DNA from: a virus
Lineage: Duplodnaviria > Caudoviricetes
Strand: one strand, 5' to 3'
Length of the DNA: 28,257 bases
Virus record (IMG/VR): IMGVR_UViG_3300020403_000062
Span: 1-28,257 of that record
Part shown: positions 2,990 through 28,044 of the stretch, one piece after another
Layout: each line of letters starts with the position of its first letter
How positions within the stretch are numbered: the stretch's first letter is position 1
Notes under the pieces: generated by a model
Told to the model about the DNA's origin: nothing
Seen by the model: the letters and a program-made list of their open reading frames with translations, nothing else
Databases searched by the model: none
Made by a program: the position numbers and the translations under genes

Positions 2990-3008
2990 GTAATTTTTTC
3001 AAAAAGTT

Positions 3009-3038
3009 AAAACCCCGCCAGCGGTGACTGACGGGGTT
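3009..3038 (-). terminator. Intrinsic terminator
   Basis: Minus strand AACCCCGTCAG..CTGGCGGGGTTTT, directly after the stop at 3043. Confidence 0.75.
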
Positions 3039-5723: not shown

Positions 5724-5750
5724 GTTAATTTTTTACAAAAGTTATTTTTT

Positions 5751-6015: not shown

Positions 6016-6276
6016 ATGATTTTTAATAAGCAAGTTCTTTGTCCTAACTGCGGCAAGAAAGCAAAAAAGAACACTGAAATTTGGTGGGAGAGACACTATG
6101 GTAAATACGAAGGAAACTTAAAAGTTATCCGGCGTGAACAAACTTTTAATGGAGACATTTTAACTTTGTGGGACGGGGAAAGTTATAAAATGTATTGTGG
6201 TTATTTTTGCACTAACCGGTGTGCTCAAGAATTTGGTAATGCGGCATTTCATGCCAGTATATGTGCGGACGCTTAA
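6016..6276 (+). CDS. Small putative zinc-binding protein (86 aa)
   Basis: CPNC and YFCTNRC motifs; GGGAG RBS; AT-rich upstream region with TATAGGA/TATAAGA boxes. Confidence 0.7.
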   Translation: MIFNKQVLCPNCGKKAKKNTEIWWERHYGKYEGNLKVIRREQTFNGDILTLWDGESYKMYCGYFCTNRCAQEFGNAAFHASICADA

Positions 6277-6350
6277 AATGTCTCTCAGCTCAACACACGT
6301 GTGTCAGATTGTCGCACCCCACTATATAATATGGGAAAAATCTTATATAG

Positions 6351-6378
6351 TTTTATAAGCTCAAGAGAGCTTATAAAA
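6351..6378. repeat. Perfect 12-bp inverted repeat
   Basis: TTTTATAAGCTC-AAGA-GAGCTTATAAAA. Confidence 0.8.
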
Positions 6379-6384
6379 TCTAAC

Positions 6385-6400
6385 TGTTTCACGTGAAACA
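6385..6400. promoter_or_regulatory. parS: parS site (chromosomal ParB/Spo0J-binding palindrome)
   Basis: TGTTTCACGTGAAACA, a 16/16 match to the canonical bacterial parS; intergenic. Confidence 0.85.
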
Positions 6401-6417
6401 TGAAAGGGAATACAACC

Positions 6418-6651
6418 ATGAAACTAGAAGCAAAAAATCAAAAGCAGGCCAATTTGTTTATAAAGTGGATCTGTCTTAATGAATGTAATTTCTGGGGCAA
6501 TGATGAAGCTGTAATCGCTCATAAGCGCGTCCTGCGTAGTTATCGTCAGTCAGTAGCCAAGGCGTTAGGCATGAAGCACACAGAGGTTCCCAGTGAAGCT
6601 CTGGACTTATACAAGGGCAATGAAGAGTTTGTTAAAGGTATGGAGCGTTAA
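6418..6651 (+). CDS. Hypothetical phage protein (77 aa)
   Basis: ATG 6418 preceded by AAAGGGAA RBS. Confidence 0.7.
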   Translation: MKLEAKNQKQANLFIKWICLNECNFWGNDEAVIAHKRVLRSYRQSVAKALGMKHTEVPSEALDLYKGNEEFVKGMER

Positions 6652-6652
6652 A

Positions 6653-6862
6653 ATGGATAATCATACTTGCGATAAACTGATTGAAATCCTCAAAGGGATT
6701 AAAGAAACCAACCACACTATGGGGATGGATAACCCCTATGAAAACCCTGATTTCGGAAAGGATTGGTATTATCCAGCCGAAAGGCAACACTATCAGCTTA
6801 TTGATGCGTTTGTGCGAACAATCAAAGACCAAACAGATATCAGTAAATCAGATTTTAAATAG
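6653..6862 (+). CDS. Hypothetical phage protein (69 aa)
   Basis: ATG 1 nt after the upstream stop, GGAG RBS. Confidence 0.7.
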   Translation: MDNHTCDKLIEILKGIKETNHTMGMDNPYENPDFGKDWYYPAERQHYQLIDAFVRTIKDQTDISKSDFK

Positions 6863-6868
6863 AATAAG

Positions 6869-7051
6869 TTAGGGGCAGAGATATTGGGATCGGCTAGTTA
6901 AAACTTTCTCTGCCCCTAAAAAGCAAAAAGACCGCTGAGTGCGGTCTTTTCTTTTATACGAGCCTTTGCCCTTTTTGGTTTTTATCACCTGCATCTTAAA
7001 CCGTGGTTCGCGGATGGGGATTGGATTTCTGTGTTTAATGGCACGTTTCAT
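6869..7051 (-). CDS. arfA: ArfA-like alternative ribosome-rescue factor
   Basis: EPRFKMQVIKTKKGKGSYKRK aligns with E. coli ArfA [21 protein letters not shown]; GAGGA RBS before ATG 7051 (alternative start 7066). Confidence 0.75.
   Translation of the reverse strand: MKRAIKHRNPIPIREPRFKMQVIKTKKGKGSYKRKDRTQRSFCFLGAEKVLTSRSQYLCP
6926..6950. terminator. Bidirectional intrinsic terminator inside the arfA-like ORF
   Basis: AAAAGACCGC-TGAGT-GCGGTCTTTT with T-tracts on both strands, between convergent operons. Confidence 0.8.
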
Positions 7052-7274
7052 TTTCGGTTTCCTCATATTCAGCCGCGATACGAGCACCGCTGGCCATGCA
7101 TGACGTAATCATGCCGATGGCTGTTGTGCTGTCTGGCGAGCTGACGATGAGGCGGAACACGATTGCAGTGAGCATACCACCAAGCACGGCACCGGCGTTG
7201 AGGTCTTCGTCCATCATTTGATCAATAAGGGCGTTTATCTCATCACCAGCTCTGTCGAAGTCTGTTTCGCTCAT
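7035..7274 (-). CDS. Hypothetical phage protein (79 aa)
   Basis: ATGA-coupled to the upstream gene. Confidence 0.75.
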   Translation of the reverse strand: MSETDFDRAGDEINALIDQMMDEDLNAGAVLGGMLTAIVFRLIVSSPDSTTAIGMITSCMASGARIAAEYEETENETCH

Positions 7275-8232: not shown

Positions 8233-8261
8233 TATATATCTTATATTATCCTATATGTCAA
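8233..8261 (-). promoter_or_regulatory. Sigma70-type promoter
   Basis: TTGACA-N17-TATATA; spacer is TATAGGA-taa-TATAAGA; the TGA of the -35 is also the endonuclease stop codon. Confidence 0.8.
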
Positions 8262-9619
8262 GCGCGGTTACTCCAGCGCACTTCGCCACCGTTCATTAAA
8301 GGTGTCTTCAGCGCATCTTTCACAGACATACCGGCGGCAAGACGGCGGCTTACTGTTCCTGCGCCGATACCATGAGCTCTGGCCGCTTCGGCGAGCGAGC
8401 GATACCCCAATTTCTTCGCCTGCTCTAAGCGGTTTTGTGTTTCTGGTGGGGGGTTCCACCCACACGATTGCCCATCGCCTACTTTTGTGGTGAGGGCTTG
8501 TTCGATAGACCACCCGCTGTTTCTGACCCGTGAGGCGACTAGTTTTGGGTTTGCCCCAAAGGCCCGTGAAGCGTGGGTCATGGACTTATATTCGACACCA
8601 AAGGCGGTAACGGTTTTTAGCGGCTTATTATAGGGCGTGATCCGCGGTTCTATTTCCAAGGCTTGTTCGACGGGCCAGTTCAGCACCCGTATGCGCCGAC
8701 TGGCTGTCGAATAATCTACCGTACCGAAGTAGTCGCAAGCATCTTTTAGTGTGGGGAAGATTTTCCCAGAAACGGATATGTCGGTTATTTTACGGCAGGA
8801 AAACTTGGTTAAGCCGTGTTCTTTTTTTAGAAGGTAGAGGGTGTGCTTGGCCATACCGTATTTTTCTGTGATTTCGTCGTCGGTTGACCCACTTTTAACA
8901 TCTTCAATTATCTGTTGGCGGGTGGTGTCGTCGTATTTGACCATCATTTCGGCGCGGGTTTTGGTTGCCCCCGCCCGTTGCAGGATGCGGTTTATAGTAC
9001 CGCGTCCGACACCATACTTTTCCGCCAGATCTTCGGTGGTAATCCGGTCACTGGTGTAATCGTCTATAATCGCCTGTTCCTTTTCCTCAGACAGTTTAAC
9101 GCCGTAACCGCCCATCGGTGCACCGACTAGGCTGTTCAGGAAAACAACATCGGGGAATGCCTTCTTCATTTTTGCAATCAGTGCAGTTTCAAAGGGCGCA
9201 ATCCGTGATGCGCGGTATTTTTTAGGAAATACTTTAAAAGAGAAGCAGTCTTCATGGTCTTGCATTGCCTCGAACATGAAGCGGTCGCGCTTATTCACGC
9301 CGTTAGACCCTTCGTTTTGGGCTTTTCTTACGTGTTGTTTGAAGCGCAGGTTGGGGTCAGTGCTTGACCCAACATAAAGGCCGGTCTTTTCGCCGTGCAC
9401 AATTAAGACATATAATTGGCTGTCGCGCTCAGAGTGGCCGGTCATTTCCGCAGGAGTCAGACATTTAAGGCCAAGCTTTCTGCCCCAGTTACGCATGATG
9501 TCGTAATCATTGTTGGACAGCCCCCTGTTGCGGCAGGCTTGCCGAATAGACAGCCTATTTTTTGCCGCATACTTGTACATCTCGCGGACTTGTATGTTAG
9601 AAAATTTTCTAAATGGCAT
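8258..9619 (-). CDS. Free-standing GIY-YIG homing endonuclease-like protein with multiple HTH repeats (453 aa)
   Basis: SQLYVL..GLYVGSS..RFKQH..E..N catalytic pattern; repeated HTH-like units (LAEKYGVGRGTINRIL, ASRAFG..SRVRNSGWSIEQAL, AARAHGIGAGTVSRRL); TACGGGAG RBS before ATG 9619. Confidence 0.8.
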   Translation of the reverse strand: MPFRKFSNIQVREMYKYAAKNRLSIRQACRNRGLSNNDYDIMRNWGRKLGLKCLTPAEMTGHSERDSQLYVLIVHGEKTGLYVGSSTDPNLRFKQHVRKAQNEGSNGVNKRDRFMFEAMQDHEDCFSFKVFPKKYRASRIAPFETALIAKMKKAFPDVVFLNSLVGAPMGGYGVKLSEEKEQAIIDDYTSDRITTEDLAEKYGVGRGTINRILQRAGATKTRAEMMVKYDDTTRQQIIEDVKSGSTDDEITEKYGMAKHTLYLLKKEHGLTKFSCRKITDISVSGKIFPTLKDACDYFGTVDYSTASRRIRVLNWPVEQALEIEPRITPYNKPLKTVTAFGVEYKSMTHASRAFGANPKLVASRVRNSGWSIEQALTTKVGDGQSCGWNPPPETQNRLEQAKKLGYRSLAEAARAHGIGAGTVSRRLAAGMSVKDALKTPLMNGGEVRWSNRA

Positions 9620-9660
9620 ACTTTTCTCCCGTAAAAAAGTGCAGATGTTTTTGTACTTAG

Positions 9661-9689
9661 ATAATATCTTATAACATCTCATATGTCAA
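9661..9689 (-). promoter_or_regulatory. Sigma70-type promoter for the endonuclease
   Basis: TTGACA-N17-TATTAT; spacer is TATGAGA-tgt-TATAAGA. Confidence 0.8.
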
Positions 9690-9695
9690 GTAATG

Positions 9696-9799: not shown

Positions 9800-9872
9800 G
9801 AAATATTTTTGCTATAATATTTTTAAAAAGTTATACTAAAATTAGGGACTGGCGCGACCATCGGGGGGTGGA

Positions 9873-21535: not shown

Positions 21536-22037
21536 AGCAATATCTCCTCACATCAAGTTCGGACTGTACTCCTGTTGCGTAGCCCAACCTTTTACCCAGA
21601 GCCTGACGGATAAAATTGGCCCCATCTAATGGATAGCTTTCAATGTAGCGTTCCGTCAAAACCTTTTGTACAAATCTACCTACTTTTAATGCGTTGTTAT
21701 ACGGTGCTATGAAATCTATCACGTATAGCATACCATCATCAGGACCGTTGCTCCAGATGTCTGAAGTTAATTTTTTAGACCCGTCTTTATAACCCGCCTC
21801 TTGTTCTTTGTTCAGAAACGCATATGAGAAAAGGCCCGTGGGCCACGCTTCCTTGTGCGCTTTCTCCTTAACGTCGCCATAGTCGTACATGACAAGAAGC
21901 TTGTCTTCTTTTAGTGCAGGTATGACCAGCCGTTCAAGGTCATGCAAAAACCAATCACGGTGCATTTCAGACTGTAACATCAGCTCAATAACAGCCGGTA
22001 TGTTAGATGACACTTTGTTAGAGCAGACGCAACTCAT
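21525..22037 (-). CDS. RTX toxin-activating lysine acyltransferase (HlyC/TAAT)-like protein
   Basis: LMLQSEMHRDW..VIPAL, PTGLFSYAFL..E..Y, DIW..G, YVIDFIAPY match HlyC SPLHRNW..VLPAI, PVAYCSWANL..E.KY, DW.SG, WFIDWIAPF. Confidence 0.85.
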   Translation of the reverse strand: MSCVCSNKVSSNIPAVIELMLQSEMHRDWFLHDLERLVIPALKEDKLLVMYDYGDVKEKAHKEAWPTGLFSYAFLNKEQEAGYKDGSKKLTSDIWSNGPDDGMLYVIDFIAPYNNALKVGRFVQKVLTERYIESYPLDGANFIRQALGKRLGYATGVQSELDVRRYCCAV

Positions 22038-25000
22038 CCCATCAAGCTCCCAATGCCTTGCTGTCGGATCATACCTGAAGCCATGTCATTCGGGAAAAGG
22101 GCCGCGAACCGCGAGCGGTCAACCGGACCTGACGGTGCAGGAGGTGTTGCCGACGCAAGGGTGGTTGTGGGTTGTGCCACCGGTTGCGCCGGAACTGGGG
22201 GCTGTACGATAGTGGGACGCACAGAGCTTTCTTCTATTGTTTCTTGTTCTTCTACTTCAATCGGCTCAACTTCGTCATCACTGAGAACTTGTGGCACAGC
22301 CCGACGACCAACACGAGTTGGCTCCGCGGAAGTGAATCCAAGTTTGTCTAAAACGGTGCCTACCACACCGGCTATTCTAATTTTTTCCTTATCATTGCGT
22401 GGTTTACGCATCATAGCTGCAAGAAGCTCTGGGTTTTCCATCATCTCAGACATAACGTCCATCTTCATGCTTTCCGGCACTTTATCAAAGATGTTACGCA
22501 TGGCTTTTGAACCCGCGGATGCGGCAATCAAACTGCCTGAACCTCCTCCACCGGGGAGCATTCTTTGCAGTTGCGTACCAAAAGCAGAACCAGAAATTCT
22601 TAAGTAGAAATCAAGCATCGGGCCCGCACCTTCGGCAATATCTCCCAAAGTGCCTTGAGAATCCATGACCTCAAGACGAACCATCTCTGTTAAATATTTT
22701 TTCATTTGGTTAGCTTGTTTTTCTTCTATGACGCCGTTCTCTAACATCCAATCCATAGCACTAATGTTGGATTTAGCATTTGGAATTTTACTGTACAAAT
22801 TATCGTACATACTGCGGGGGCTAAAGCTACGGCTAGTTGCTCCACCTTTTGTCATCGCCCATTCTAAAATAGAATGTTTTAATCCAGAAGCGGCATCGGC
22901 GCGAAGTTCTTCGGGAGCACTGTTAACAACATCCATTAAATTATCTAAAGATCGAATCGGAGCTTTTTGACCATTAGCTAGTGCGCGACTGACAGCAAAA
23001 GTGGGGCTTTCTGTATTGTTAGGCAACAAATTTTTAAAAGTTATCTGACCCCTCATGGCCGCTTCTGCGCTTTTATTTTGCATCTGCCGCCCTTGCAAAA
23101 CAGTATTTGCACGTGCCGCATTATTTAAATCCGCTCTAAGCGCAGGATAGGTATCTAACAACTCACTATTAGCATTCATCCATTTTTGCAGGCTTTTGAT
23201 GTTGATTTCACCAGTTTGAGGATCGAAGGCCGCGGCTCGTGCGTTACGAATAATCATTTCTTGAGTTCCGCGAATACTAGCGGCTATCCCTTCCGCACCT
23301 TCAAAACCATTATCTATGGCAAATTGTCCAAGATCATTAATTTGCTTTACCCGCAAGTATGTTGGATCAGAACCTCCTGTCATTAGACGTTGAGCTAGTA
23401 GTTCTGGAGCTATGCGTTCTGCCCCAGTTTTGCCTTTTTCTAGAGCACGACCCGCAAAAGCACGAGTAAAAGTATCGTTTAGAGACCTTGAATATGAGCG
23501 AGCAATATCATATGCCGCATTTTCACCTTCAGGAATGTTAAAATTAAGATCATCTAAAAGACCATCGGCAAAATTGGATGCAATACGAGCTGCGTTGTAA
23601 TCTCCAATAGCCGTTTGTTGACGAGCTATATTTAGTGCAAGCTGACGCATTTCTGTAGCCTCTGTTGTAGTTAACAGAGGAGCGTCAATACCGTCTAAAT
23701 CAACCCCTTTAAGACTTTCTAAATTAGTAAAAAACTTTCCTTCTTCGGTGTCTGGGCTAGTCCGAAGCAAGGCATCTTGCTCTGTTTTGATAAAAGCATC
23801 GCGTTGGTCAACAGGAGTCTCTTTAAGAATATCTCGGATAGTGTTAAATTTAGCCTGAAACTCTTCAGTCATGGGTAGCAGATTTAAGGTAGACCCCAAC
23901 TCTCCACGCTTACGGTTAATAAAAGTAGCTAATGGGCCAAGCTTTTTGTTAATTTCAGCCGCTGCCTCTTCTGTCTTGGGCATTGAATTTTCCCAAGCTG
24001 TTAGGAAGTTAGGCTGAGCAACCTCGTTACCGTCGGCATCGCGAAATACATTAATATCTACATCTTCTACTGCATTCCAAAGCTTTTTCTCTTGTGCACG
24101 AGCTTGAGAAAGTTGTGAACTGGCAAGTTCAAACAATTTTGTGGAAAGAGCTACATTGCTTTGTGGGTCCGTGCCACCCACACGGTCTCTAGCTGAAAGA
24201 ACATTTGCCGACGCACGTTGCAGACGGTTGGTTAGGCTAGCAGAGAATAGGTCTTCCGCCATTTGAGCGGCTAACTGTAACGCATCCGGATTACCCGTAG
24301 CAACTAGAGCCGCAATAGTGTTACGCAACGCGTTATTAGCCTGAACATTTTTAGCAGAGCGTTCTTTACCTAGTCCGGGGCTTGTTTGCGCTAAAGCTGC
24401 TTCAATAGCTAAAAGAGCAGGACTATCTGCCTTCATACCCGCAGTCAGTGTAATGGGTCTGCCAGTATCTGGATCAATTAAAACATCTTCAAATTCTTTT
24501 GAACTTAGACGTTCAATGATAGCATCTACGTCTTCTCCAGACTCCTCTAAAATATCTAAAATACGGTTTGCACCAGCTTGTTGACGACGACCTTTAAAAC
24601 CTTTTAGATTAACTTCTCCGCGGGCTACTTTACCGGGAAGTTGAACTATTTTCTTTAGGTTTGGAACAAGAGCGGTTAAACGATCTGAAAGAATAGCGGC
24701 ACTTATACCACCCGGTATTTCTGCCATTAGCCGTGTACTTGCATCACCCGGATCTACAGTCTCTGCAATGTAAGCTCCGCCTGCGGCTCCAGCTCCAGCT
24801 CCAGTTTCTATAGCCGCAGTGGCGATAGGAGATTTACGGGCCGCGGTCCCTGTTTTGCTCAGGAGCTTTTCTGCCCCAGCAATTAAGCGGGTGCTAAGAG
24901 GGCCCTTTGCTTCTCCCGCTAAGTTATCAAGAAACTGTGCTGCACCAAAATTTACGTTCGTAGAAATCATGTAAGGCATCGGCAACCAGCCGATTGCTCC

Positions 25001-25582
25001 ACCAAAAGTTTTCCCAGACTCATACGCGGCGATAGAGCCGGGAGTTACAGGTTTTTCTGGACCAAACAACTCATCGGCAGTAGCTTCACCTGCTTTATAA
25101 AAACCGGTAGCTCCCAAAAGGGTGGTAACGGTAGGAATAGCAACTTTTGCGGCAACAGCCCATGGCCCCGCTGGTGGGATCGGCTGTTGTAAACCCATGC
25201 CTATTTCTGCGCCAAGTTTGGCTCCAGCTAAGCTAAACACAGACGGCAAAATTTCACGCTTTACACCACCAGCAAAAGTACCTTCTTGAATAGGTTCGCC
25301 CTGCTCATCTACAGCAAACAAAGAAATAATCTGTGCGTTGCTAAGACTACGGTCTTCTGGTGCAAGGTTCGCGAACTGCGGTAGCTGACTAAACAACGGC
25401 GCAGTTCCGTCTCTCAAACCCTCGTAGGTAATCAGCTCCGGGTAATCAACGGCAACTTCAGACGTAAGTTGTTGAGCTAGAACAGGTTCTGCCCCTCCTT
25501 GTTCGTCCACAAAGAGCTGGTTAATCTGATCCATTTGATCTTTAGAAAAAGTAACTGGGCTTATATTAAGGTTTTCCGCCAT
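22034..25582 (-). CDS. Large probable internal virion/DNA-ejection protein (1182 aa)
   Basis: Ala/Gly-rich hydrophobic segments, helical character, coupled to its neighbours; function inferred from size and context. Confidence 0.65.
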   Translation of the reverse strand: MAENLNISPVTFSKDQMDQINQLFVDEQGGAEPVLAQQLTSEVAVDYPELITYEGLRDGTAPLFSQLPQFANLAPEDRSLSNAQIISLFAVDEQGEPIQEGTFAGGVKREILPSVFSLAGAKLGAEIGMGLQQPIPPAGPWAVAAKVAIPTVTTLLGATGFYKAGEATADELFGPEKPVTPGSIAAYESGKTFGGAIGWLPMPYMISTNVNFGAAQFLDNLAGEAKGPLSTRLIAGAEKLLSKTGTAARKSPIATAAIETGAGAGAAGGAYIAETVDPGDASTRLMAEIPGGISAAILSDRLTALVPNLKKIVQLPGKVARGEVNLKGFKGRRQQAGANRILDILEESGEDVDAIIERLSSKEFEDVLIDPDTGRPITLTAGMKADSPALLAIEAALAQTSPGLGKERSAKNVQANNALRNTIAALVATGNPDALQLAAQMAEDLFSASLTNRLQRASANVLSARDRVGGTDPQSNVALSTKLFELASSQLSQARAQEKKLWNAVEDVDINVFRDADGNEVAQPNFLTAWENSMPKTEEAAAEINKKLGPLATFINRKRGELGSTLNLLPMTEEFQAKFNTIRDILKETPVDQRDAFIKTEQDALLRTSPDTEEGKFFTNLESLKGVDLDGIDAPLLTTTEATEMRQLALNIARQQTAIGDYNAARIASNFADGLLDDLNFNIPEGENAAYDIARSYSRSLNDTFTRAFAGRALEKGKTGAERIAPELLAQRLMTGGSDPTYLRVKQINDLGQFAIDNGFEGAEGIAASIRGTQEMIIRNARAAAFDPQTGEINIKSLQKWMNANSELLDTYPALRADLNNAARANTVLQGRQMQNKSAEAAMRGQITFKNLLPNNTESPTFAVSRALANGQKAPIRSLDNLMDVVNSAPEELRADAASGLKHSILEWAMTKGGATSRSFSPRSMYDNLYSKIPNAKSNISAMDWMLENGVIEEKQANQMKKYLTEMVRLEVMDSQGTLGDIAEGAGPMLDFYLRISGSAFGTQLQRMLPGGGGSGSLIAASAGSKAMRNIFDKVPESMKMDVMSEMMENPELLAAMMRKPRNDKEKIRIAGVVGTVLDKLGFTSAEPTRVGRRAVPQVLSDDEVEPIEVEEQETIEESSVRPTIVQPPVPAQPVAQPTTTLASATPPAPSGPVDRSRFAALFPNDMASGMIRQQGIGSLMG

Positions 25583-28044
25583 CAGTTTTTCTTCCCTTTT
25601 TGAATGATGCTGCGGAGAGTGTCCACTTTGCCCTGTGACGCGCTGCCTAATCTGTAAGCATTTCTAAAAACACCATATCCATCTTCTAACTGGTTCATTT
25701 GCAACAAGAATGTTTGTGCGTCTTTATATTCTTTACTGTCTAAAGGAAGATTATCTATTTTATTTTGCAAAACTTGTTTCGCGTTTGTAATCATGCCTAA
25801 AATTTTATCCACTTTATCGGCTGATGTGTCTGGTCCGGTGAATAATTCCAAAGGTTTAGGTGTTAAGTCCTGCAATAATTGAGCTTGAAAAACAGATTCT
25901 CTAAGTTCTGCGGACTTTTGAAAAGTTTGAAGAAAGTTTTGATTTAAAGTTTTTGCCGCATTTATTGCAGATTTTTCCGGTTTAAACGGAGCACTTGCAG
26001 TAAAAAATTCAAACAAATTGTTTATGACATTTTTTCCTACAGCCACGGAGCCAAAAGCCGACATTGGGTTTTGTAGTCCTACAGTTACCGCGTTAGTAAA
26101 ATCTGTTTGTCTTTCTAAAGGTTTATTTTCTGGTGCGGCCTCGTCCAGTTTTATGTTTGGATATGTAAGACCATTTTCCCGACGAATCCGGATAGAAGAA
26201 AGAAGCTCGTTAGACAGCGGATTACCCGGTGATAGAACGAAGCGTTTCTCTTTTTCATTCCAAACCTGCTTCGGTGCGTTATAGTAAGCAATCGCCTGAT
26301 TGAACTCCAAAGTTTCATCTGGACCCATAGTCCCAGCCGCATATTTAGCCAAGCTCTCTGGATTAGAAAGAAGAGTCGTGATCCGCGCTTCGGTGCTCGT
26401 GCCCAAACGTGTAAGTCTCGCGGCGGCCTCTTCGAGAGCCAGCTTTTTATTCTTGTAGCCCTGCTCAAACGTATTCATCTCGGCTTCCATCTTCAAAGCC
26501 TCTTCTTCTAGTTCAATCTTGCGCTCACCCTGTGCCCGCGCAACCTCGGCCTTAATGGTATCAAGCTTTAACCGACGCTGAGCCAGCTCATTATCCATGT
26601 TAGCTAACTTTTCCCTCAGAGCGTTGTTTGTAGTGTTCAGCTCTGTTGCCTGCTCATGGGCTTTGTCCATCTTGGCAAGCTCATATTCGTTAGCTACGTC
26701 CATCTTACCCAATTCAATGTTGGCTTGAATTTCCATGTTTTCTTTTTTCAACTTGTCAGCAAGGACAATATCGGCTTGACTGCCAGACTGCTCAAGCTTC
26801 TCTATAGCTTCACGGTTCTGTTGCTGAACACCTTCAAGAGCCACACGGTTGGCCTGCTTTCGATCTTCCAGACTTTCGGCACCTTTTTGCTTTAGCTTTT
26901 CCAAAGCTCGCGACGATGCACTAGACAGTTTGTCCTTCAGCGTAATCTCAGCTATGTTCTGTGCGCCCTCTAGCTTTTTTTGCGCTAACTCAGAAGCGGC
27001 TTTTGCTTCTGCGGTCAGTCCGGCTTCTGCCGCACTAAGGGCTGACAGTTTAAGCTGTTGCTGTTGTGCTTTAGCCGCGGCCTCTTTATCGCGTTGCGCC
27101 TGTGCGCGAGCACCAATAGTCTGTGGAAGTTTCGTGGTCCGCGCTGCAAAAGCTAAGCGTTCTGCCGCACTCATACCGGGCCGTTCACCTTCCATAGGTG
27201 CGGCAAAAGCCAACGCAGTGTTGGCAATGTCAAATAGCATTTGAGACTGTGTCAGTTTTTTCTGCTCTTCAAGGTCAGCGGTAGGGTCCCCAAGGATGCT
27301 TGTATATAACGGCATCTTTTGCTGGTACAGCTCACCAAGACGACCGGCTTGAGCGATAGGGTCTCCACCTTGCTGCATTTTTATGACCGGCTGGTTGTCT
27401 CCGCGGCGGACCAGCCCGCCATCTTTAAAATTTACGGGAGGTGCCCCCTCCATGGGCATCGGCTGTGGTTCAGGTGGAGCAACTGTGGACATTATGCCCT
27501 GTGCCATCGCACCCTCTACCGGAGCAGACATTTCTTCTTGAGCAAGCTCGCCGATACCCTGATCGACAGAGGCCATCATCATAACAGGCTGAACCAGAGC
27601 TAGAACAGATTCTGGTGTTTGTTGAGCATCTTCAGGGCCTACAACCTGAGCTAGTTCTGCATAACGCTCTTCAACACTGGCTTCGTCGCCACGTATGGCG
27701 TTCATCATATCTTCGGGATCTTCAATATTTTCTAAATCCCCGATACCAGCATCTGCCGCACCCATTAGCATCTGTTCTATAACCGCAGGATCAATGGTTC
27801 CGGCGGCCTGTTGGGCAGGAGCACCGGGGTCTGGCATCATAGCCGCCTGTCCTGCCGCCATACCTGCCGCCATGGCAGGGGGCTGTTCTGGCATCATACC
27901 AGCAATACCGCCCTCTTGCTTGAACTCAACGCCTCGACCTTTCAGGATATCAGCTTGTGTGATTTTGCCGTCTCCAGTCAAATCAGGAAAAGCAGCTCCG
28001 CCTTTGGCAAACATCTGCCGTTGTAGTACGCCTCTATTCATCAT
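25582..28044 (-). CDS. Probable internal virion protein (820 aa) with coiled coil and xxGG motifs
   Basis: FAKGG, KQEGG, FKDGG, MQQGG; EF-hand-like DLTGDGKITQAD; long central heptad-like region. Confidence 0.65.
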   Translation of the reverse strand: MMNRGVLQRQMFAKGGAAFPDLTGDGKITQADILKGRGVEFKQEGGIAGMMPEQPPAMAAGMAAGQAAMMPDPGAPAQQAAGTIDPAVIEQMLMGAADAGIGDLENIEDPEDMMNAIRGDEASVEERYAELAQVVGPEDAQQTPESVLALVQPVMMMASVDQGIGELAQEEMSAPVEGAMAQGIMSTVAPPEPQPMPMEGAPPVNFKDGGLVRRGDNQPVIKMQQGGDPIAQAGRLGELYQQKMPLYTSILGDPTADLEEQKKLTQSQMLFDIANTALAFAAPMEGERPGMSAAERLAFAARTTKLPQTIGARAQAQRDKEAAAKAQQQQLKLSALSAAEAGLTAEAKAASELAQKKLEGAQNIAEITLKDKLSSASSRALEKLKQKGAESLEDRKQANRVALEGVQQQNREAIEKLEQSGSQADIVLADKLKKENMEIQANIELGKMDVANEYELAKMDKAHEQATELNTTNNALREKLANMDNELAQRRLKLDTIKAEVARAQGERKIELEEEALKMEAEMNTFEQGYKNKKLALEEAAARLTRLGTSTEARITTLLSNPESLAKYAAGTMGPDETLEFNQAIAYYNAPKQVWNEKEKRFVLSPGNPLSNELLSSIRIRRENGLTYPNIKLDEAAPENKPLERQTDFTNAVTVGLQNPMSAFGSVAVGKNVINNLFEFFTASAPFKPEKSAINAAKTLNQNFLQTFQKSAELRESVFQAQLLQDLTPKPLELFTGPDTSADKVDKILGMITNAKQVLQNKIDNLPLDSKEYKDAQTFLLQMNQLEDGYGVFRNAYRLGSASQGKVDTLRSIIQKGKKN

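Follow-up and report, generated by a model that had tools for sequence, protein, structure and literature searches.

The analysed window is the whole IMG/VR virus record IMGVR_UViG_3300020403_000062 (28,257 bases, estimated to be ~48% complete), with a G+C content of 45-49%. Its genes include those for a family A DNA polymerase, a primase, helicases and a small terminase subunit, and a tRNA and tmRNA gene search across the window found none. Comparisons of the DNA polymerase showed the closest identity to that of Phage DSL-LC04 (56.3%), followed by phage 023Pt_psg01 (54.5%) and the Pelagibacter phages HTVC023P (50.8%) and HTVC027P (49.5%). The arfA gene is the final ORF in a leftward series of small ORFs, and three small plus-strand ORFs (6016-6862) converge on its hairpin. 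The ORF immediately upstream of arfA is without a family match. The features of the locus are as follows.

7035 to 7274, minus strand: upstream ORF of 79 residues, with a 17-nt overlap between its 3' end and the arfA start
7059 to 7064, minus strand: Shine-Dalgarno-like GAGGAA, with a 7-nt spacer to the ATG at 7051
6926 to 7051, minus strand: conserved coding part, M1 to F42 (Pfam ArfA, PDB ArfA chains, purifying selection)
6947 to 6976, minus strand: KKGKGSYKRK motif, K26-K35, whose final codons provide the terminator A-tract
6925 to 6951, minus strand: terminator hairpin in the consensus scan, 11 pairs with 5 G-C and a loop of 5, then GCTTTTTAGG
6918 to 6929, minus strand: U-tract (TTTTTGCTTTTT), where terminated transcripts are predicted to have their 3' end, close to codons C43-F44
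6872 to 6916, minus strand: second hairpin, 13-bp stem and 25-nt loop, directly after the terminator
6869 to 6925, minus strand: read-through tail, unconserved as protein, up to and including the TAA at 6871-6869

Elsewhere in the window, a minus-strand ORF of 474 residues (8258-9682) carries a GIY-YIG nuclease domain and several helix-turn-helix domains. It is bounded by 27-nt direct repeats (8236-8262 and 9664-9690, 85% alike), and together the ORF and the repeats look like an inserted homing-endonuclease gene. An AT-rich near-palindrome of 19 nt (TAATTTTTTAAAAAGTTA-like) occurs in five copies. Those at 18-36, 2991-3009, 5726-5744 and 9815-9833 are located in gaps between ORFs of at least 90 residues, ahead of leftward ORF runs, and the fifth, at 2045-2063 (79% alike), is located within the ORF 1686-2912. 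The near-palindromes are possibly phage promoters or operators, and in the contig of a relative a similar string lies directly next to the second hairpin. Two very large minus-strand ORFs of 1182 and 820 residues occupy 22034-25582 and 25582-28044, for which searches of PHROGs and Pfam returned nothing.

The minus-strand arfA ORF is open to an in-frame TAA at 6871-6869 and has candidate starts at GTG 7087, ATG 7066 and ATG 7051. The ATG at 7051 was taken as the start because it is the sole candidate with a Shine-Dalgarno sequence and gives an N-terminus of the same length as in the relatives, in which GGAGG or GAGGAG also lies ahead of the start. Thus, arfA most likely starts at 7051, with GAGGAA at a 7-nt spacing, rather than at 7066 as the earlier note had proposed, a position with no Shine-Dalgarno sequence. 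From 7051 to the TAA the ORF comprises 60 residues.

The earlier note had claimed an ArfA-like ribosome-rescue factor at this locus and named a profile search as a check. The ORF matches Pfam ArfA (PF03889) at 31.9 bits against a cut-off of 25.5, covering model positions 20-43 of 44, and a six-frame search of the record recovered PF03889 at 31.1 bits. A PDB search at E up to 1 gave six distinct sequences, each of them an E. coli ArfA chain (E ~2e-3), with residues 13-37 of the ORF aligned to residues 20-44 of E. coli ArfA at an offset of 7; within KKGKGSY(K/M)RK, a single residue differs between the phage ORF and the PDB chains. KKGKGSYKRK is invariant in 8/8 aligned homologues, and PF03889 is carried by 7/7 database homologues. 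From K24 to F42 the homologues align without variation apart from two loop-encoded residues, and the alignment continues into divergent tails, the whole proteins ranging from 41 to 92 residues. An NCBIfam search of the ORF gave no match, a PHROGs search gave only an unnamed family (E 2.8e-4), and the INPHARED phage set, queried at the DNA and protein levels using the locus and the ORF of 60 residues, yielded nothing; the same set searched with a 47-aa alphaproteobacterial query gave seven weak places. Judged by homology, the ORF is a member of the ArfA family, as had been claimed.

The N-terminus of the window lineage departs from the family pattern. Positions 1-19 of the Pfam model are unmatched by the phage ORF, the N-terminal 12 residues of which lie outside the match, and at the NPxA of its nearest relatives the window lineage lacks the Ala and carries a gap of 2 residues. 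The alphaproteobacterial homologues are matched by the Pfam model only from position 17. The segment aligned to Q27-E30 of E. coli ArfA is M20-I23, in which MQVI stands against QRVE with V alone identical. ArfA is ordered only when on the ribosome. In the sections of PMC8012679 on E. coli ArfA, RF2 activation requires A18 and an ordering of residues 1-14, Q27-E30 recruit RF2, and the C-terminal basic motif occupies the mRNA channel.

The motif is followed by an in-frame terminator ahead of the stop, in agreement with the earlier note: the hairpin spans 6951-6925, and the TAA at 6871-6869 comes 54 nt after the stem. The core stem pairs 6946-6941 with 6935-6930 around the loop 6940-6936. Its two strands, GACCGC and GCGGTC, are codons D36-R37 and R40-S41, and codons D36 to F42 as a whole constitute the terminator. 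An A-U extension of the stem is formed by the KRK codons (the A-tract) paired with the first U run. The 43-nt stretch has a folding energy of -15.8 kcal/mol vs. -6.9 ± 2.2 kcal/mol in shuffles (z -4.07, with 1 of 200 shuffles equal). In random 130-nt segments of the same loci, with the same 26-nt range of start positions, any terminator-like hairpin was found in 91/3000 and one with at least 5 G-C pairs in 18/3000. On the plus strand, too, the hairpin was scored as a terminator (6926-6950), and it is thus bidirectional. An Rfam search gave sub-threshold matches only; the best, STnc540 (21.2 bits vs. a gathering score of 38), was set aside as a terminator look-alike, the RNA of that family deriving from the ihfA 3' UTR. 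A +1 slip on the U run that would reach a nearby TAG was rejected because the frame of this TAG varies among the relatives. A relative of the arfA region is held in two RNA libraries of one study (share 0.19), and its contigs, which are evidence of neither transcription nor ends and may come from a library that contains DNA, cover the gene and pass the terminator to 6895 and 6884. A tightly coupled ribosome could suppress formation of the hairpin.

Relatives were collected by pattern matching followed by confirmation. The viral contigs gave at least 600 pattern-matching stretches, at least 117 confirmed relatives and 80 loci kept; the contigs of species-representative genomes gave 119, 20 and 20, respectively; and the metagenome contigs gave at least 594, at least 123 and 80. 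Within the clade of the window, the protein continues after the motif as KRK-(D/G/E)R-x-x-R-(S/P)-F, and the hairpin begins at the same codon in every member among the matches listed. A hairpin with at least 5 G-C pairs located 15-40 nt after the motif is present in 18 of the 19 distinct clade sequences among the matches listed, a count that is partly circular, unlike the counts over all loci, as the clade was chosen by similarity and by the same hairpin geometry. The hairpin of the 19th sequence (L150) has a loop of 14 nt, beyond the limit of the scan. Covariation analysis of 13 distinct relatives from the viral and metagenome contigs (among the matches listed) showed that 130/130 cells are paired, a count that we regard as independent of the geometry-based choice of the clade. 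Three of the ten stem pairs (32-46, 33-45 and 36-42) have changed on both sides, with compensatory changes from A-U to G-C, from C-G to G-C or A-U, and from C-G to G-C. The covariation score was reached by none of 500 shuffles, and controls with slid partners pair in only 38-72% of cells. The U-tract T48-T52 is invariant in the alignment of relatives (A3).

Comparisons of closely related pairs showed that the codons up to KRK are under purifying selection in the relatives. Over these 32 codons, L011 and L012 differ by six synonymous and no non-synonymous changes, and L006 and L008 by three synonymous and one non-synonymous change; both pairs are unrelated after the U-tract. The window and its relative L107 differ by two non-synonymous and one synonymous codon changes, too few to judge. 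Among the relatives listed, the first in-frame stop lies +66 to +246 nt (22 to 82 codons) after the motif, and the tails after the U-tract vary in length, frame and sequence. In no clade member among the matches listed is KRK separated from the stem by a stop codon. Selection up to KRK, unrelated tails and shifting frames thus indicate that the conserved unit consists of the coding part, the hairpin and the U-tract. As far as such comparisons reach, the annotated C-terminal 16-18 residues are no conserved protein. A 28-nt deletion in the 5' part of arfA is found in the near-identical relatives L003, L004 and L005 (about 2990-3010 of L004) and also in L109. It lies between two CAC triplets and shifts the first seven codons into a stop. 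In L003-L005 it takes the N-terminal 19 codons out of frame, and the remaining ORF begins at the counterpart of M20, which suggests that the gene is dispensable or decaying in some genomes.

The second hairpin fills most of the gap between the terminator stem and the stop and is unique in the window. In five distinct relatives, 50/50 cells are paired over the 10 pairs counted, of which three have changed on both sides, and the loop of 25-29 nt contains many invariant letters. The two hairpins are separated by 13 nt in the window, 11 nt in L008 and 10 nt in L009. Thus, the frame in which the second hairpin would be read differs between L008 and the window. Candidate roles are those of a back-up terminator, a processing site or a 3' UTR element of the plus-strand operon. 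The 33-nt core of this hairpin also occurs, with unlike flanks, in other contigs of DNA runs.

The generality of the layout was assessed by classifying the distinct KKGKGSY loci in each collection, with identical segments in two collections counted twice, with the early-stop class defined as no hairpin within 75 nt and with hairpin criteria that may miss the weak hairpins of AT-rich homologues. The counts are as follows.

Viral contigs, 57 distinct loci (among the matches listed): hairpin before the stop, 15; early stop, 34; long ORF, 8; hairpin at or after the stop, 0
Genome contigs, 20 distinct loci: hairpin before the stop, 8; early stop, 11; long ORF, 1; hairpin at or after the stop, 0
Metagenome contigs, 65 distinct loci (among the matches listed): hairpin before the stop, 13; early stop, 49; long ORF, 0; hairpin at or after the stop, 3

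The stop-less layout is therefore not general among the phage homologues. The earlier idea that homologues keep a terminator before the stop holds for the clade of the window, where it is accompanied by compensatory changes, and fails for the 34 of 57 viral loci in the early-stop class (among the matches listed) and for gp30 of Pelagibacter phage HTVC027P. In L021, L023, L084, L025, L028-L034, L038, L039, L047 and L050, the motif is located near the start of longer ORFs of 124 to ~270 residues. The long motif-bearing viral ORFs have a common C-terminal end (…GQWSARKAQ…GGGY), and a weak hairpin and its T-rich run overlap their motif; a Pfam search of these ORFs found no family besides ArfA. Small ArfA-like ORFs bearing a stop are present in two phage isolates, in Roseobacter phage CRP-212 (L190), unannotated under an annotated CDS of 1203 residues, and in an unannotated stretch of Erythrobacter phage vB_EliS-L02 (L191). 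Six loci of Pelagibacteraceae (L090, L096, L097, L099, L100 and L103) are ArfA-like by tblastn and the KKGKGSY motif.

Read at the level of the DNA, a phage member of the ArfA family with the canonical terminator-in-ORF layout is real and well supported by the comparison of relatives, and its expression logic and rescue activity are predictions. This marine phage encodes an ArfA homologue whose transcript is predicted to end inside its own ORF, and we consider it probable that the product of this stop-less mRNA is tagged by tmRNA unless trans-translation is saturated. By analogy with bacterial arfA and brfA, RNA polymerase would halt at the U-tract (6925-6918). Ribosomes would then reach the mRNA's 3' end and produce a peptide of ~42-44 residues, which by the offset of 7 would end at positions 49-51 of E. 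coli ArfA. As in the bacterial systems, tmRNA-SmpB, when free, would tag this peptide for proteolysis. When trans-translation is overloaded, untagged peptide would build up, enter the empty mRNA channel of stalled ribosomes and, as bacterial arfA and brfA suggest, recruit host RF2 for peptide release.

It is quite unlikely, in our estimation, that the ArfA is real while the hairpin is only a shared bidirectional terminator of converging operons, with the protein read through to the annotated stop and no tmRNA gating. The hairpin does score as a terminator on both strands at a convergent junction, a role that could by itself select for the stem, the downstream ORFs (raw ORFs) are convergent in 13 of 16 clade loci among the matches listed, the RNA-library contigs of a relative extend beyond the hairpin, and ordinary stops are present in most phage homologues (34/57, among the matches listed). 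However, the lack of any stop between KRK and the hairpin in the clade members listed argues against this reading, as do the tails of 22-82 codons, unrelated even where the coding parts differ only synonymously. In the remaining 3/16 loci (L058, L107 and L148; raw ORFs, among the matches listed), the downstream ORFs are co-directional, which also speaks against the notion, put forward in the earlier note as a refutation, that the hairpin only serves a convergent operon. Selection on the stem may be increased by shared termination, which leaves the missing stop unexplained.

The atypical N-terminus bears on two further readings. A peptide that binds the mRNA channel through KKGKGSYKRK with no RF2 activation, acting as a blocker or competitor of tmRNA-SmpB or host ArfA or in another ribosome-directed role, is in our judgement very unlikely. 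The match to the Pfam model is confined to its C-terminal half, the conserved Ala is absent and the 2-residue gap present in the region of E. coli A18, and the L003-L005 variants retain only the channel-binding part; moreover, an E. coli A18T variant, as described in a section of PMC8012679, binds and recruits RF2 and fails to activate it. However, the strand-like stretch in the Q27-E30 region is similar (KMQVIK vs. RQRVEK), and the same short N-terminal pattern is found in the alphaproteobacterial chromosomal homologues, so that the short N-terminus is probably a normal family variant. We also hold it highly improbable that the arfA of this lineage is a decaying passenger with no present function. 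The 28-nt deletion in near-identical relatives and the atypical N-terminus would fit decay, to which the three codon changes between the window and L107 (two of them non-synonymous) can be added as too few to judge. Against decay, the frame is intact, with a good Shine-Dalgarno sequence and an overlap with the upstream ORF, the motif and the terminator are invariant across the clade members listed, and the sister lineages show clear purifying selection.

If the preferred reading of a tmRNA-gated rescue factor is true, the phage gauges the load on the main ribosome-rescue system of its host and responds with its own factor, and non-stop ribosomes would probably be a real bottleneck during infection. 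As a guess, the benefit to the phage would arise because heavy mRNA decay in infection or host nucleases would create non-stop ribosomes; the earlier note had proposed, likewise as a conjecture, a counter to host RNase or toxin defences. A bolder version, which we think unlikely, is a mobile cassette for rescue on demand: the coding part and the terminator would move between unrelated marine phages, sense the exhaustion of trans-translation and restore ribosomes against host nucleases or abortive-infection toxins, with the second hairpin serving in processing or stabilising. The stop-less and stop-bearing phage arfA genes offer a natural contrast for when gating is useful.

ArfA and its stop-less regulation are textbook knowledge for E. 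coli, and ArfA domains have been named in two phage genomes. In the passages of PMC12753301 and PMC8953757 that concern them, gp30 of Pelagibacter phage HTVC027P is named ArfA with only its function given, and g10 of Citromicrobium phage RXM is named ArfA with only the bacterial function restated. Full-text literature searches for ArfA and phage returned, in the passages retrieved, no stop-less phage arfA and no bench work on phage ArfA. HTVC027P resembles the window in encoding an ArfA-domain protein together with a related DNA polymerase (49.5%). Unlike the window, it carries in gp30 the motif form KKGRGSF, has no terminator there and reaches an ordinary stop 13 codons from where the motif begins. 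This gp30 overlaps the adjoining small terminase gene and reaches 20.2 bits on Pfam ArfA, under the cut-off.

Like the phage ORF, E. coli ArfA (YhdL, PF03889) is a small basic peptide with KKGKGSY-x-RK, and a hairpin within its ORF gives rise to an mRNA lacking a stop, an outcome predicted from sequence for the phage. As stated in parts of PMC8012679, the arfA stem-loop leads to premature termination or RNase III cleavage, and there and in parts of PMC3989591 trans-translation acts on the product made from the truncated mRNA. Truncated ArfA of 53-55 residues is fully functional in the account of PMC3989591 available to us, and the predicted phage product would end at about the same aligned position as this active form. 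The two systems differ in that the phage hairpin is a short intrinsic terminator starting from the codon after KRK, whereas the enterobacterial hairpin, as found in L088 and L092 (Klebsiella and another enterobacterium), is a long RNase III hairpin ~50 nt past the motif. The phage factor further differs from E. coli ArfA in being phage-encoded and in having 12 unmatched N-terminal residues.

A closer likeness in layout is seen in the marine alphaproteobacterial arfA-like loci L091, L093, L094 and L098 (Rhodospirillales and Thalassospiraceae genomes), in which a terminator and a T run come directly after the motif as in the phage. L093 matches Pfam ArfA at 40.9 bits vs. the cut-off of 25.5, and L091, L094 and L098 were assigned by tblastn and the KKGKGSY motif. 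These loci share with the phage gene the N-terminal NPxA..L..P, KKGKGSYKR and a G-C-rich terminator, and differ from it in being chromosomal, in having stems of 10-12 pairs and in their sequences, which are 40-49% identical. The same logic is known from BrfA (YqkK) of Bacillus subtilis. In the description given in sections of PMC8012679, brfA has a rho-independent terminator ahead of its stop, and BrfA combines control by trans-translation with dependence on RF2. BrfA is classed as a separate factor, and it is by this description that it is likened here to the phage arfA.
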